Source: a phage. From it: DNA of 64,000 bases. Of this stretch, positions 12,895 to 16,797 are shown one piece after another. How positions within the stretch are numbered: position 1 is the first letter of the stretch; each line of letters opens with the position of its first letter. The translations under genes were made by a program, and so were the position numbers. Below the pieces are notes generated by a model that was not told the origin of the DNA, did no database searches, and saw only the letters and a list, made by a program, of their open reading frames with translations. The DNA is taken from the sequence record PX104378.1. The stretch is one strand, 5' to 3'.

Positions 12895-13215
12895 TTATTT
12901 ATAAATTTCGACGATCTGCGCTGGAGTCAGCCCGTCTACATTAATCAGACTATCAAGCCCAAAACTACGGAAACCTTCAACTGCAATTTCATATACTGGC
13001 AAAGATGTTTCTGATTCTTTACGCGGTTTTTCAACATTCGGAACTAACCACTTTTCGTATGTTTCAAACGGCATCAGTGCCGGATCTCTCGTAGCGATCA
13101 TCTCGCGGACAGTACCATCTTTCTTAGTAAACTGCAAAGAGTGAGTACCGACCGAAAACATTTTCTTTAGTGCTTCACGAAGTGCGATATTATCAATTTG
13201 TTCGGTCATTATCAA
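12895..13215 (-). CDS. hypothetical protein (106 aa)
   Basis: ORF overlapping the 3' end of cd by 23 nt. Confidence 0.5.
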   Translation of the reverse strand: MIMTEQIDNIALREALKKMFSVGTHSLQFTKKDGTVREMIATRDPALMPFETYEKWLVPNVEKPRKESETSLPVYEIAVEGFRSFGLDSLINVDGLTPAQIVEIYK

Positions 13216-13933: not shown

Positions 13934-14832
13934 TAAAAGTCTCCGTAGTTAACCTGAAAACATTCTACACCAATTGATCGGTACATGTCAACCACTTGAT
14001 CACGGTCATCTACTGCCAACACAACATGATAACGCGGTGCAATTTCAGAGAAGAAAATCTCTTTCTTCACTTCATGATCAGGACGACGATCATTAGTTTC
14101 ACGTTGAAAGTGATCACTAGGTTCGATACCTTGTTCACGCAACCATTGCAGCGTATCTTCCTCGCAAACATCCTCACGTCCTGAGCACGTAATGATACGA
14201 TAGCCATTATCACGATACAGTTTAAGCATTTCGATCACTTGCGGACGCGGTTTATCTTCTTTGACCTTTGTCCAGTCAAACGGATGACGACCGCCCTTAT
14301 CCGCTAATGTTCCATCAATATCAAAGATCACTGCCTTCGGCAGCATGGTATTCGGTTTGTATACTTCTTGACCCATATATTCCTGCATCAGATAAAATTG
14401 GTTACGCAAATGAGAAAGTGGAATTGCTTTCTCGCCGCGATAGAAATTACGTTTCTTTAGTGTCTCAAATGATTCATTGAACACTTGTTCAGTATACACC
14501 GCGTTAAATTCTTTTGCAAGTTCTTTGTAGAATACACGATGTTTTTCTTTCAGGTTGGTATCGGAGATAATGATACTCAATCCGCGTGATAGAGTCTCAC
14601 GAGCAATCATTCTCTGAATAGACTCTACCAGCTTTTCTTTTTCCTTAGTATACTTGTATTTCAAAAGTGAGTCAACACCAAACAACATAAGACGAAGATC
14701 ATCGCGATTCACATTACGATAATTACTAAACCGTTTACATGTTTCCATAGCCCATGTAGTTTTACCGGACCCAGAACAACCAACGGTTAAAATCACTTCA
14801 CATTTCGGCATTATTTCTCCTTCGGTTTGCAC
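13933..14832 (-). CDS. pseT: polynucleotide 5'-kinase / 3'-phosphatase
   Basis: 299 aa; P-loop GCSGSGKTT; phosphatase DxDGT (VIFDIDGTLA); collinear with recalled T4 Pnk to the C-terminal QVNYGDF. Confidence 0.9.
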   Translation of the reverse strand: MQTEGEIMPKCEVILTVGCSGSGKTTWAMETCKRFSNYRNVNRDDLRLMLFGVDSLLKYKYTKEKEKLVESIQRMIARETLSRGLSIIISDTNLKEKHRVFYKELAKEFNAVYTEQVFNESFETLKKRNFYRGEKAIPLSHLRNQFYLMQEYMGQEVYKPNTMLPKAVIFDIDGTLADKGGRHPFDWTKVKEDKPRPQVIEMLKLYRDNGYRIITCSGREDVCEEDTLQWLREQGIEPSDHFQRETNDRRPDHEVKKEIFFSEIAPRYHVVLAVDDRDQVVDMYRSIGVECFQVNYGDF

Positions 14833-15263
14833 CGTTCCTCATTAAGTTCTTTGCGATAATAACACATGATCAACTTACTTTCAAGTGTATATCTCTTAAT
14901 ATCCGCAAGCCAGACTCTGAATTTTTGGGAGTCCTCCCACGACATAGAAACTCTAGGTTTACCGTCTATTGTATCCACTTTCAGGTTAATGTCAACTTTT
15001 TCTATTGGTGCTGGTAGTGGAGGATGTAATTTCGGTTCCTGTGAATAATGGTCCATTGTACACGAAGAAAGAGCAAATACAATAGGCACAGCGAAGACAT
15101 GGATTATGGCGGTCTGAAAATTCTTATGTGCTTTCTTAAACATCCAGTGTATCACGAAAATTGAAAACACCATAAGGATAATAATGCTTGCACCTATCCC
15201 CAGATAATCAACCAGATTAAAATTGCTTATCTGCTCTTGCGTAGGCAATATTTCTATGCTCAT
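14811..15263 (-). CDS. membrane protein, possible o-spanin-like component
   Basis: two hydrophobic segments; internal Met followed by a lipobox-like FALSSC and Pro-rich PPLPAPIEK; GGAGG SD at first ATG. Confidence 0.4.
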   Translation of the reverse strand: MSIEILPTQEQISNFNLVDYLGIGASIIILMVFSIFVIHWMFKKAHKNFQTAIIHVFAVPIVFALSSCTMDHYSQEPKLHPPLPAPIEKVDINLKVDTIDGKPRVSMSWEDSQKFRVWLADIKRYTLESKLIMCYYRKELNEERCKPKEK

Positions 15264-15583
15264 TTAGTAGCCTCCTTTAATTCTTCGGTAAACTCCTTAA
15301 ATGAATCATTAAGCTGTTTCTCTACCAACTTGGGTTTTTGTGCTACTACATAGCCTCGTGTAGCGTCTTTCATTGCTTTGTTTTGTTCTTCGGCAAACTT
15401 AGTTCTTATTCCGTACATCTCCTTTTGTAGTGAGTCTACGACCTTCATCTTTTCATCTGTCTTTTTCTTATACTCTGTAAATTCCTGATTCAGTCGATCT
15501 ACCTCCTTTTTATTTTCCCACCACATATTGCCACCTATCCCCAACAACACAGATATGATAACAATGTATATCAGCTTTGACAT
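15260..15583 (-). CDS. i-spanin-like protein (N-terminal TM plus coiled coil)
   Basis: start at internal ATG (MSKLIYIVIISVLLGIGG) downstream of terminator hairpin; the predicted Lys/Glu-rich helix is periplasmic. Confidence 0.45.
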   Translation of the reverse strand: MSKLIYIVIISVLLGIGGNMWWENKKEVDRLNQEFTEYKKKTDEKMKVVDSLQKEMYGIRTKFAEEQNKAMKDATRGYVVAQKPKLVEKQLNDSFKEFTEELKEATK

Positions 15584-15603
15584 ATTACCCCCAACGACAA
15601 AAG

Positions 15604-15621
15604 GCGGGGAACTAGCCCCGC
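15604..15621 (-). terminator. rho-independent terminator after rnlA
   Basis: GCGGGG-AACTAG-CCCCGC hairpin followed by UUUUGUCG. Confidence 0.55.
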
Positions 15622-15627
15622 TTATTA

Positions 15628-16797
15628 TTACCAATCAATCTTATCAGCCGGAATTAGTTTCTTATAATTCCGTAGATAGTAAGTTTTCATTGAAGCCAGA
15701 ATACGGTCATAATCAAGACCATCAAATGCAATCATCAGACACATGAAAATATATGCTTGTGCATCACCATGTTTACGTGATTCGATAGTCGCATTGGATG
15801 CATATGTCTTTCTGTCTTCTCCCGCGTGTGCGTTATAAAATTCTGTTGCTGTCGTAAAGGCATTGCGAAGAATGGACCTGAATGCTTCCTCGAATAGCTC
15901 GATTCGTTCCAGTGCTTCCGGTTCGCCTTCATATGCAGCACGCAAATCATCGGTTTCGCTTTCTACGACATAGTAGATCAGGTTATTAGGAAACATCGAT
16001 GTGTTTTTAATGTTATGCACACCAATATACCATTCACTCTTCACCTTGAACATTTGACCGTCTTTAGTGCGTGCAACAATTCCTTCGATACCTTCTGCGG
16101 TCCTAACTTCATCAAGAATATTGCTAAAACGCGCTGAATCAACCTGTAACGCATTTACCATATGAGGACGTAGGATTGCATCAGCAAATAGCATTTGATG
16201 CGGTACATACTCTCCTGTGACGTTATGGCGTACATTCAGAAGTGTCAGCGACGGTTCAGAATATTCTACAACAATTCGGTTGCTGGGTGCTGTATATTCA
16301 AAGTTGAAAGTATAATCAGACCCAATATCGGCGATCTTAGCGCGTAGATCCGCATACTTCTCTGAATACAGAAGACCGTTTGCTCTCTCTGCCTGGCTTG
16401 AGTACAAGGCCGCTTTAGACTTCAACTGAACATAGCCGTTATCAATGTATGTGCTTACTAGACTACCGTCCATTTTGTCCATGACCATTTCCACATCTTC
16501 CGGCTTAAAGCGAGCGCGATCATTCTCACCCAAATTAAAAAACTTCTCCATAGGACGAGATGCAATGCGGACCGGACGACCTTTATCGTCAATTTCAAAC
16601 ATGATCCCGCGACACTCTAACGCATCTGGTTTATTCCACATTTCCGGTTTGCTCAAGTACAGATAGCTAAAAATGCGCATACGGGTTTGCATCGCCGTAA
16701 TTTCATCTTTGTAATAGAACGTATCAGATCCGTCACATAGTGCCATCAGATTTTTGAACAATGCTAAAATTTTTTTGTTGTTTTCTTTTGTTGACAT
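15628..16797 (-). CDS. rnlA: RNA ligase 1
   Basis: 389 aa; DALECRGIMFE..VRIASRPMEKFFNLGEN and FEYTAPSNRIV match recalled T4 Rnl1 (gp63). Confidence 0.9.
   Translation of the reverse strand: MSTKENNKKILALFKNLMALCDGSDTFYYKDEITAMQTRMRIFSYLYLSKPEMWNKPDALECRGIMFEIDDKGRPVRIASRPMEKFFNLGENDRARFKPEDVEMVMDKMDGSLVSTYIDNGYVQLKSKAALYSSQAERANGLLYSEKYADLRAKIADIGSDYTFNFEYTAPSNRIVVEYSEPSLTLLNVRHNVTGEYVPHQMLFADAILRPHMVNALQVDSARFSNILDEVRTAEGIEGIVARTKDGQMFKVKSEWYIGVHNIKNTSMFPNNLIYYVVESETDDLRAAYEGEPEALERIELFEEAFRSILRNAFTTATEFYNAHAGEDRKTYASNATIESRKHGDAQAYIFMCLMIAFDGLDYDRILASMKTYYLRNYKKLIPADKIDW

Follow-up and report, generated by a model that had tools for sequence, protein, structure and literature searches.

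A T4-type spanin pair in a Krischvirus genome, with comparative evidence that the extra N-terminal helix of its o-spanin is translated

Between rnlA and pseT, the 64,000-nucleotide stretch of phage DNA analyzed here (sequence record PX104378.1; hereafter the window) carries two small overlapping genes that resemble a two-component spanin, except that the second encodes two hydrophobic segments with a lipobox behind both. This raises the question of whether the genes are a spanin pair and, if so, how an outer-membrane lipoprotein could arise from a protein whose lipobox lies so far from its start. The genes concerned are:

15260..15583, minus strand: i-spanin gene pseT.3, 107 amino acids and a TGA stop
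14811..15263, minus strand: o-spanin gene pseT.2, 150 amino acids and a TAA stop
15628-16797: rnlA, neighbor of the pair (PF09511/PF20819)
pseT, the other neighbor of the pair (PF25109 and AAA_33)

The window belongs to a Krischvirus, and its DNA at this locus is 98-99% identical to that of ECD7, JK32, RB49, JSE, and Phi1, relatives on which spanin annotations are present (RefSeq labels the pair Rz-like spanins); the o-spanin protein is 100% identical to its RB49 counterpart. The i-spanin gene precedes the o-spanin gene, and the TGA of pseT.3 (15262-15260) overlaps the ATG of pseT.2 (15263-15261) in an ATGA at 15260-15263, giving the 'separated' architecture; pseT.2 also overlaps pseT, via TAATG. 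RB49, JSE, and Phi1 are members of the T4 i- and o-spanin families in SpaninDB (Kongari, 2018; PMC6139136), which places the RB49 pair at equivalent coordinates, lists its architecture as 'sep' with a distance of -4 (RB49 and JSE), and gives lengths of 107 amino acids for the i-spanin, 150 for the o-spanin, and 83 for the mature o-spanin. The spanin identity of the RB49-like genes is already known and catalogued in RefSeq and SpaninDB; our literature search found no experiment on them. Annotation varies between GenBank/RefSeq records: pseT.3 is shortened in several, so that its transmembrane domain (TMD) is lost from the annotated protein, and pseT.2 is 'hypothetical' in others.

Profile and pairwise comparisons agree with this assignment. 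PseT.3 matches PHROG 739 'Rz-like spanin' over residues 2-107 (E=1e-26) and T4 PseT.3 by BLASTP (E=1e-13; 35% local identity, best at the C-terminus), while PseT.2 matches PHROG 812 'Rz-like spanin' over residues 53-150 (E=1e-32) and T4 PseT.2 (E=1e-23; 48% local identity). Neither protein had a significant match in NCBIfam or in a Pfam-A release older than PF26831; that family, Phage_T4_Spanin, was found as a precomputed label on PseT.2 homologs. A search of IMG/VR for more diverged copies returned two near-identical loci only. The homology and the lipoprotein-rule matches of the pair are far beyond chance, and we regard its identity as a spanin pair as practically certain.

The i-spanin fits the topology expected of its class, one N-terminal TMD oriented N-in and, behind it, a mainly helical or coiled-coil periplasmic domain:

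15518..15574, minus strand: N-terminal TMD of the i-spanin, residues 4-22, uncharged, LIYIVIISVLLGIGGNMWW

This segment is flanked by Lys3 on the cytoplasmic side and by ENKK on the periplasmic side, and the 85 residues that follow it are 35% Lys and Glu and 45% charged, with no Cys. SpaninDB gives the same 85-residue periplasmic domain for the near-identical RB49/JSE i-spanin, predicting 83.5% helix and placing a coiled coil at 25-56 (PMC6139136). The preliminary description had read this gene, from its letters, as an i-spanin with an N-terminal membrane helix and a Lys/Glu-rich coiled coil; the composition and the homology to PHROG 739 and T4 PseT.3 bear that out.

It had likewise proposed that the overlapping gene is o-spanin-like, with a lipobox-like FALSSC before a Pro-rich stretch, and that the pair sits where T4 keeps its spanins; both proposals hold, the former through PHROG 812 and T4 PseT.2, the latter since T4 carries pseT.3/pseT.2 in the matching slot between rnlA and pseT. 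FALSSC lies at residues 63-68 of PseT.2, five Pro occur in the next 25 residues, and L65-S66-S67-C68 is invariant in all nine long homologs while the flanking membrane residues vary. The core pattern of the PROSITE lipoprotein rule PS51257 matches at Cys68, and of the window's 302 long frames between stops, pseT.2 is one of only two that pass the full rule at any start. The mature protein would be:

14814..15062, minus strand: mature o-spanin, Cys68-Lys150, 83 amino acids

Its layout comprises a Thr at +2 (Ser in relatives; a non-Asp residue, as expected for outer-membrane sorting), a Pro-rich linker, a beta hairpin, and a C-terminal helix with C134 and C145. In the BLASTP alignment these align with C87 and C98 of T4 PseT.2, both of which are essential for spanin function (PMC6139136). 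Conservation across the mature domain is 88-96% and extends to both functional Cys.

What sets this o-spanin apart is the sequence before the lipobox. The preliminary description had found the gene atypical in having two hydrophobic segments, an oddity also noticed earlier by the SpaninDB curators; they are at residues 20-42 and 48-67 and form part of a 67-residue pre-sequence:

15207..15263, minus strand: acidic N-tail, residues 1-19, net charge -3, no Lys or Arg
15138..15206, minus strand: extra hydrophobic helix TM1, residues 20-42, Kyte-Doolittle 19-residue maximum 2.56
15141..15143, minus strand: internal ATG (Met41), the only Met start giving a canonical lipoprotein signal, without a Shine-Dalgarno sequence
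15123..15137, minus strand: basic loop KKAHK, residues 43-47, net charge +3, predicted cytoplasmic
15060..15122, minus strand: TM2 (the signal-peptide h-region) and lipobox, residues 48-68, with LSSC at 15060-15071

The positive-inside rule predicts a periplasmic N-tail; with an acidic tail and a basic loop, the loop should be cytoplasmic and Cys68 should face the periplasm, and KKAHK corresponds to a lipoprotein signal peptide's n-region. An AlphaFold2 (AF2) model of low confidence (pLDDT 65, from an alignment of only nine sequences) predicts helices at 17-44 and 47-67, disorder at 68-93, a beta hairpin, and a helix at 109-144. An LGIG motif occurs near the predicted periplasmic leaflet in both the pre-sequence and the i-spanin TMD.

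The lipoprotein signal depends on where translation begins. A conventional signal has its Cys about 15-35 residues in, behind a basic n-region; from the start supported by a Shine-Dalgarno sequence, the Cys is not reached until residue 68, and residues 1-19 are acidic. The preliminary description had named the lack of a lipoprotein signal under any start as evidence against its reading; PS51257 in fact fails from Met1 and passes from Met41 or a GTG at codon 37, and from Met41 the Cys is at +28, while residues 2-7 behind that Met include three Lys. The SpaninDB curators likewise noted a 'too long signal sequence', with no LipoP match on the full-length form, and obtained a good LipoP match only from MFKKA, suspecting a downstream start for Phi1 (PMC6139136). 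In our search of the literature on the extra-helix anomaly and on lipoboxes preceded by a TMD, these supplementary notes, which leave the anomaly unexplained, were all that was found. The misplaced signal bears on the processing of the precursor, not on homology.

One explanation is that the start has been mis-called: the true o-spanin would begin at codon 41 (MFKKAHK...) with a conventional 27-residue signal, and the upstream 120 nucleotides would be an untranslated spacer that is open by chance. The lipoprotein rule and the curators' LipoP result point this way, as does the position of the Cys at 14-27 in the other family members inspected (38 in P0087). Initiation signals point to codon 1 instead. 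The elements upstream of the two genes are:

15604..15621, minus strand: terminator-like G+C hairpin, GCGGGGCTAGTTCCCCGC, followed by CTTTTGT
15588..15592, minus strand: Shine-Dalgarno-like GGGGG, 4 nt upstream of the i-spanin ATG
15271..15277, minus strand: strong Shine-Dalgarno AAGGAGG, 7 nt upstream of the pseT.2 ATG

AAGGAGG lies within the final codons of pseT.3 and is conserved in relatives; its predicted anti-Shine-Dalgarno duplex is worth -11.6 kcal/mol at codon 1, compared to -0.9 at codon 41, so that only codon 1 combines a Shine-Dalgarno sequence with ATGA coupling to pseT.3. Upstream, the G+C hairpin is directly 3' of the rnlA stop and 20 nt before the i-spanin start, and it is kept in all diverged relatives. 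The GGGGG before the i-spanin is also marked by SpaninDB for JSE (PMC6139136). A search upstream of the pair for a T4 late promoter (TATAAATA) found none nearby, and sigma-70-like matches near the pair were at background level only.

Comparison with four diverged metagenomic relatives (61-83% identical, including L004, L005, and L008) provides the evidence for translation of the extension that is new here. All four keep an open reading frame of 150-155 amino acids, the ATGA overlap, and the Shine-Dalgarno sequence, with in-frame indels; read in either of its two other forward frames, the stretch before the Cys contains 2-6 stops. In codons 1-40, pairs that include the window have pS of 0.62-0.87 vs. 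pN of 0.23-0.46 (Fisher p = 2e-8 to 2e-3); the L004-L005 and L004-L008 pairs showed no significant synonymous excess in these codons. Purifying selection is weaker there than on the mature domain, and close relatives differ non-conservatively in the extension (P7S, G22W, F57C). The topology signature is retained even at a sequence identity of only 30-47%: the N-tail carries a charge of -1 to -3, TM1 spans about 23 residues (a 15-residue uncharged core in P0007), the loop carries +2 to +4, and TM2 ends in the invariant LSSC. The codon equivalent to Met41 is ATG in the window, the RB49-like phages, L004, and L007, and TTG in JSE, but is ATT or ATA (Ile) in L005 and L008, where no alternative canonical start exists and no Met start satisfies PS51257. 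On these grounds the extension is very likely translated, and a mis-called start, against which stand the open frame, the synonymous excess, and the conserved pattern of charge and hydrophobicity, is very unlikely.

Alternatively, both starts might be used. In that case a 150-residue and a 110-residue product (from codon 41) would be made, with the long form regulating or inhibiting the short, canonical prolipoprotein, as with S107/S105 of lambda. The retention of the internal start in the RB49-like phages, L004, and L007 would suit this arrangement, and by PS51257 the short form is a classic lipoprotein precursor; the internal start has no ribosome-binding site, however, and L005 and L008 have lost it yet keep the whole extension. 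Initiation without a Shine-Dalgarno sequence within an actively translated reading frame is normally inefficient, which also counts against a dual start. We consider such an arrangement improbable. Even less credible is that full-length PseT.2 stays unprocessed, TM1 acting as an N-in signal anchor that holds the protein in the inner membrane, so that no canonical bridge from inner to outer membrane would form. TM1 is indeed more hydrophobic than TM2 (Kyte-Doolittle maxima 2.56 vs. 2.01), and both LipoP and PS51257 are negative on the full-length form, but the N-tail is acidic without Lys or Arg and the loop basic in every homolog, LSSC persists across the nine long homologs despite its variable surroundings, and the mature domain with both functional Cys is strongly conserved.

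Other assignments were tried and set aside. A unimolecular spanin of the T1 gp11 type does not fit, as both hydrophobic segments lie upstream of the lipobox and a separate i-spanin is present; this reading was rejected because there is no C-terminal TMD, residues 109-150 being a charged helix. TM1 is too hydrophobic, at its Kyte-Doolittle maximum of 2.56, to be read as a SAR domain. Nor is the pre-sequence a recognizable holin or antiholin: in a search for an independent origin of the extension, as in a gene fusion, isolated pre-sequences matched nothing in PHROGs below E=0.2, and no free-standing protein that matches profile positions 1-60 turned up in an exhaustive profile search.

That search (HMMER, 1.84 billion representatives) returned 82 family members, among which profile positions 1-50 were matched only by the RB49-like cluster and one truncated copy; TM1 is absent from 80 other family representatives, and the Cys lies at 14-27 in all 14 other members inspected except P0087. 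Apparent partial extensions in KIT01 and pf16, suggested by tblastn matches beginning at query residues 36-37, were rejected, their genes encoding ordinary proteins of 96-100 amino acids. Within the T4 o-spanin family, a lipobox behind an extra, conserved, translated transmembrane helix thus seems confined to the RB49 clade.

Taken as a whole, a two-component spanin whose o-spanin is translated as a hairpin pre-prolipoprotein is probably the best explanation of the locus. PseT.3 would be an inner-membrane protein of type II whose periplasmic domain is helical and rich in Lys and Glu, and PseT.2 would be translated from its first ATG, coupled to pseT.3 via ATGA and the strong Shine-Dalgarno sequence, as a 150-residue precursor with a 67-residue pre-sequence in the form of a helical hairpin. 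We infer the topology, the processing by Lgt and LspA, and whatever role the hairpin may have after its release. The acidic tail would be translocated to the periplasm, TM1 would run out-to-in, the KKAHK loop would remain cytoplasmic, and TM2 would run in-to-out to end in LSSC; TM2 would thus be oriented like an ordinary lipoprotein signal peptide. Lgt would then lipidate Cys68 and LspA would cut before it, yielding an ordinary 83-residue o-spanin that begins at Cys68 and, because of the Thr at +2, would be sorted to the outer membrane as a lipoprotein, while the 67-residue two-helix peptide would stay behind in the inner membrane. By analogy with T4 and lambda, the C-termini of PseT.3 and PseT.2 would bind across the periplasm, and after holin and endolysin action the complex would fuse the inner and outer membranes, releasing the phage. 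We consider processing along these lines likely, a shade less so than the explanation as a whole. Among documented LspA substrates, we are aware of none in which a transmembrane helix precedes the signal peptide.

The closest characterized system is T4, whose PseT.3/PseT.2 complement lambda Rz/Rz1 (Rzam Rz1am; PMC6139136). It shares the slot between rnlA and pseT, the ATGA-overlapped 'separated' architecture, a Cys-free i-spanin, and an o-spanin that has 83 amino acids when mature and carries two C-terminal Cys spaced 11 residues apart. In contrast, T4 PseT.2 has a 16-residue signal peptide before Cys17, compared to Cys68 after an acidic tail, a helix, and a basic loop in the window, which also has neither alc between rnlA and pseT.3 nor pseT.1 between pseT.2 and pseT. 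The RB49, JSE, and Phi1 genes are essentially identical and differ in nothing substantive. Lambda Rz/Rz1 is of the same class, a type II inner-membrane protein and an outer-membrane lipoprotein bridging the periplasm, but has no sequence similarity to the window pair; its genes are embedded rather than separated, and mature Rz1 is 40 residues long and unstructured, whereas the o-spanin here has 83 residues and is partly helical.

For the fate of the hairpin there are two partial parallels. The bacteriocin release protein of pCloDF13 is a small lipoprotein linked to lysis, and its signal peptide, once released by LspA, persists in the inner membrane with an activity of its own (van der Wal et al., 1994/1995, as cited in PMC5727409). 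That peptide is a single short hydrophobic segment, compared to a 67-residue two-helix hairpin here, and the two are analogous only, with no homology. Arenavirus GP-C has a stable signal peptide of 58 amino acids with two hydrophobic segments, which is retained as a subunit of the membrane-fusion complex. The likeness, an unusually long two-segment signal peptide on a membrane-fusion protein, is a purely conceptual parallel. GP-C comes from a eukaryotic virus, signal peptidase I cleaves it, and its hairpin has the opposite orientation. Tentatively, and at clearly lower odds than its processing, the pre-sequence might be a clade-specific functional membrane hairpin, produced 1:1 with the o-spanin and set free by LspA. 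As a 'stable signal peptide' persisting in the inner membrane, it might modulate lysis, for instance through contact with the i-spanin TMD, which likewise carries LGIG; alternatively, it might delay o-spanin maturation or, by analogy with the bacteriocin release protein signal peptide, perturb the membrane.

For genome annotation, the recognition of this pair is a routine and correct rediscovery of the RB49-like spanin genes. If the o-spanin precursor is processed as proposed, however, the known substrate range of Lgt/LspA lipoprotein maturation would be wider, the failure of automated lipoprotein predictors to recognize the RB49-clade o-spanin would be explained, and a lysis-related stable signal peptide would become possible. 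Should the hairpin prove functional, it would also mark the first case in nature of an LspA substrate whose signal peptide follows a transmembrane helix.

All genes in this region of the window lie on the minus strand, and the two putative spanin genes are situated between rnlA and pseT:

15628–16797, minus strand: rnlA, RNA ligase 1 (PF09511, PF20819, PHROG 562)
15260–15583, minus strand: upstream ORF (pseT.3), 107 aa
14811–15263, minus strand: downstream ORF (pseT.2), 150 aa
13933–14832 (ORF-tool listing), minus strand: pseT, polynucleotide kinase/phosphatase (PF25109, AAA_33)

The preliminary description had placed both ORFs at these coordinates, and its account of them agreed with the ORF listing and residue composition. 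The upstream product, described as i-spanin-like, has an uncharged stretch at aa 4–22, after which Lys+Glu make up 35% of the next 85 residues and Cys is absent; the downstream product has the o-spanin-like features ascribed to it, i.e., FALSSC at aa 63–68 and then a Pro-rich stretch. The two ORFs overlap as ATGA (15260–15263), and the o-spanin stop overlaps the pseT ATG at 14811 as TAATG, with AAGGAGA preceding that ATG. Given that these overlaps link the genes, pseT.3, pseT.2, and pseT make up an overlapping chain whose members are probably coupled in translation. The start of pseT is a GTG at 14832 in the mechanical ORF list (299 aa, minus strand); RB49 gene calls, like metagenomic ones, use the ATG at 14811 (292 aa). 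Further upstream, a 153-aa ORF (named denA in RB49) shares 65 nt with the beginning of rnlA (16733–16797, minus strand); the RB49 annotation shows the identical overlap, and some metagenomic gene calls begin rnlA later (372 or 354 aa).

Database comparisons support the proposed interpretation of these genes as a spanin pair. The 107-aa ORF matched PHROG 739 (Rz-like spanin) end-to-end (E = 1e-26) and the 150-aa ORF matched PHROG 812 (Rz-like spanin) over aa 53–150 only (E = 1e-32), while PF26831 (‘Phage_T4_Spanin’) is present on homologues. Direct BLASTP matched the products to T4 PseT.3 (E = 1e-13) and T4 PseT.2 (E = 1e-23; 48% identity over aa 79–146), and C134 and C145 of the o-spanin align with C87 and C98 of T4 PseT.2. 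Kongari et al. (2018; PMC6139136) found both of these periplasmic Cys to be essential in T4 PseT.2 and used lambda Rzam Rz1am to demonstrate complementation by the T4 pair. The interpretation is further supported by the shared T4 slot and by SpaninDB, which for RB49, JSE, and Phi1 records a ‘separated’ architecture, a distance of −4, lengths of 107 + 150 aa, and an o-spanin that measures 83 aa when mature. Among 59 phage records that match the 1-kb locus (95% identity or higher), the 40 listed show 97.8–99.1% identity to it; all come from Krischvirus or RB49-like T4-type coliphages (e.g., ECD7, JK32, RB49, JSE, Phi1). The genes are named pseT.3 and pseT.2 in these records, with ‘Rz-like spanin’, ‘i-spanin/o-spanin’, and ‘outer membrane lipoprotein Rz1’ increasingly used as labels, and RB49 PseT.2 is 100% identical to the 150-aa window protein. 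The spanin pair of this phage is already known and already annotated.

T4 carries pseT.3/pseT.2 in the same slot, as had been claimed, with alc on the rnlA side and pseT.1 on the pseT side. In contrast to T4 (L010, 570–1076 and 1713–1940), the window phage lacks alc between rnlA and pseT.3 (15584–15627) and pseT.1 between pseT.2 and pseT. A missing alc is in keeping with RB49-like phages, which are not known to use modified cytosine. A terminator-like G+C-rich hairpin (15604–15621, minus strand) followed by CTTTTGT, the two together spanning 15597–15621, lies directly after the rnlA stop and just ahead of the i-spanin Shine-Dalgarno (SD) sequence; it is kept in all four diverged relatives, with a conserved stem and a variable loop that is either CTAGTT or of a shortened TTG type. 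No T4 late-promoter box (TATAAATA) was found upstream of the pair, the nearest on the minus strand being at 12896, and the spanin genes therefore seem to rely on read-through or upstream early/middle promoters.

RefSeq/GenBank records of RB49 (L001, 2061–2327), JEP8 (L003, 861–1127), and JSE (L013, 861–1127) annotate a 267-nt pseT.3 (88 aa) begun at internal Met20, a start that deletes the i-spanin transmembrane domain (window 15518–15583). SpaninDB and phage Skers use the 324-nt ORF with a GGGGG SD. An LGIG motif occurs both in this transmembrane domain (aa 14–17, 15532–15543) and in the first hydrophobic helix of the o-spanin (aa 21–24, 15192–15203), each copy near the predicted periplasmic helix end. 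GxxG is mostly kept in i-spanins and GxG in the o-spanin helix of diverged relatives, with G22W in JEP8 and Phi1; the common motif may hint at helix-helix packing or be a coincidence.

The presence of two hydrophobic segments in the second ORF, which the preliminary description considered atypical, proved to be real, conserved, and clade-restricted. The segments belong to the following region ahead of Cys68:

aa 1–19: acidic tail, net charge −3, no Lys/Arg
aa 20–42: TM1, strongly hydrophobic helix (Kyte-Doolittle maximum 2.56)
between TM1 and TM2: basic loop KKAHK
aa 48–67: TM2, second hydrophobic segment
L65-S66-S67-C68: lipobox, invariant

In one lineage (L004 3001–3456; P0004), a lipobox-like IGAC lies inside TM1 (Cys27); the other lineages do not conserve it. 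We applied our own coding of the PROSITE lipoprotein rule PS51257, with T4 PseT.2 as positive control, at the possible starts of 14811–15263. The rule fails at Met1 because the Cys sits at residue 68, and passes at the internal Met41 (Cys at +28; three Lys in residues 2–7 after the start Met) and at a GTG at codon 37. Across the whole window, it is satisfied at any start in 2/302 long stop-to-stop frames; the other frame is at ~41425 (plus strand; 68 aa; MYAPRRIRIFVNSLAISC...). A curator note on JSE and Phi1 in the SpaninDB supplementary spreadsheet reads ‘Too long signal sequence’; the other ‘too long’ cases shown are 33–38-residue signals without a second transmembrane domain. The main text of Kongari et al. 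(2018; PMC6139136) leaves this anomaly undiscussed. The long pre-sequence was thus previously noticed by the SpaninDB curators.

Five lines of evidence indicate that the translated product is very probably the 150-aa ORF, extension included. Codon 1 is preceded by AAGGAGG 7 nt upstream (anti-SD duplex −11.6 kcal/mol), compared to −0.9 for codon 41 and no better than −2.8 for other in-frame starts. Among 5.8 billion proteins, a word-indexed search recovered relatives of 151–155 aa at 83, 74, 74, 62, and 63% identity, whose contigs are syntenic RB49-like genomes. In each of them the i-spanin is 107 aa long, the ATGA overlap is present, the SD sits at the equivalent position, and pseT follows downstream; extension indels among the diverged relatives are in frame, and the pre-Cys region contains 2–6 stops in the two other forward frames in every lineage. 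In codons 1–40, synonymous differences are near saturation but non-synonymous ones are not (window pairs: pS 0.62–0.87 versus pN 0.23–0.46; Fisher p = 2e-8 to 2e-3; two non-window pairs not significant), though constraint is clearly stronger in the mature domain (pN 0.06–0.15). Met41 is unconserved, being TTG in JSE and ATT or ATA (Ile) in two metagenomic relatives (L005 and L008) that keep the full extension yet have no Met start passing PS51257. Finally, the charge/hydrophobicity pattern persists where identity to the window falls to 30–47%: an N-tail of net −1 to −3, a TM1 of ~23 residues (uncharged core of 15 in P0007), a loop of net +2 to +4, and a TM2 leading to the invariant LSSC.

This comparative evidence argues that the hydrophobic extension belongs to the translated precursor rather than reflecting a mis-called start. 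Exclusive use of an internal start would yield a signal passing PS51257 at Met41, but the weak duplex at codon 41 and the loss of Met41 in relatives make it improbable. If both starts were used, the long form would be regulatory and the short form would carry the signal that passes PS51257; this reading encounters the same loss of Met41 and is somewhat less unlikely. Least plausible is an unprocessed o-spanin anchored in the inner membrane, which would suit the failure of the rule at Met1 but sits poorly with the invariant lipobox.

An exhaustive HMMER search of 1.84 billion representative proteins, using a profile from nine long homologues, found 82 family members. Profile positions 1–50 were matched only by the RB49-like cluster (P0004) and a truncated or chimeric copy (P0009); the remaining matches are 70–132 aa, with alignments starting in the signal-peptide or mature region. 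Ordinary signal peptides with the Cys at 14–27 were present in 14 of 16 inspected sequences (at 25–26 in P0080). The one other oddity, the metagenomic T4-family o-spanin homologue P0087 (125 aa), has its lipobox Cys at 38, after an acidic, non-basic lead of ~20 residues (MSIIDSIKDKIYYYSNDAIDAF...), and may have diverged from the usual signal in a separate event. P0073 (1832 aa) matched profile positions 97–122 in three separate stretches (E = 3e-5), which may be a repeat or compositional artefact. No stand-alone protein like the extension was found by this search or in PHROGs. As judged from these profile matches, the extension is an insertion specific to this clade, placed after the start codon and ahead of the signal peptide in a T4-type o-spanin.

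In small phage coat proteins, N-tails that are short and acidic undergo translocation. Most likely, the acidic N-tail of the o-spanin would likewise be translocated and the basic loop would remain cytoplasmic (positive-inside rule), giving an N-out/C-out hairpin in which TM2 is oriented exactly like a lipoprotein signal peptide, with the lipobox on the periplasmic side. From such a precursor, Lgt and LspA could yield the 83-aa mature lipoprotein, same as in T4, and Thr at +2 predicts Lol-dependent outer-membrane sorting. A weak AF2 model (nine sequences, pLDDT 65) contains helices at 17–44 and 47–67, a disordered Pro-rich linker (68–93), a beta hairpin (94–107), and a long helix (109–144) bearing both Cys. 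By analogy with lambda/T4, later steps would comprise a C-terminal complex and disulfide-linked o-spanin dimers, with the membranes fusing once the murein has been degraded (PMC6139136). We infer this topology and processing, as well as any role of the released 67-aa hairpin; if the pre-sequence has a function of its own, the upside would be modest.
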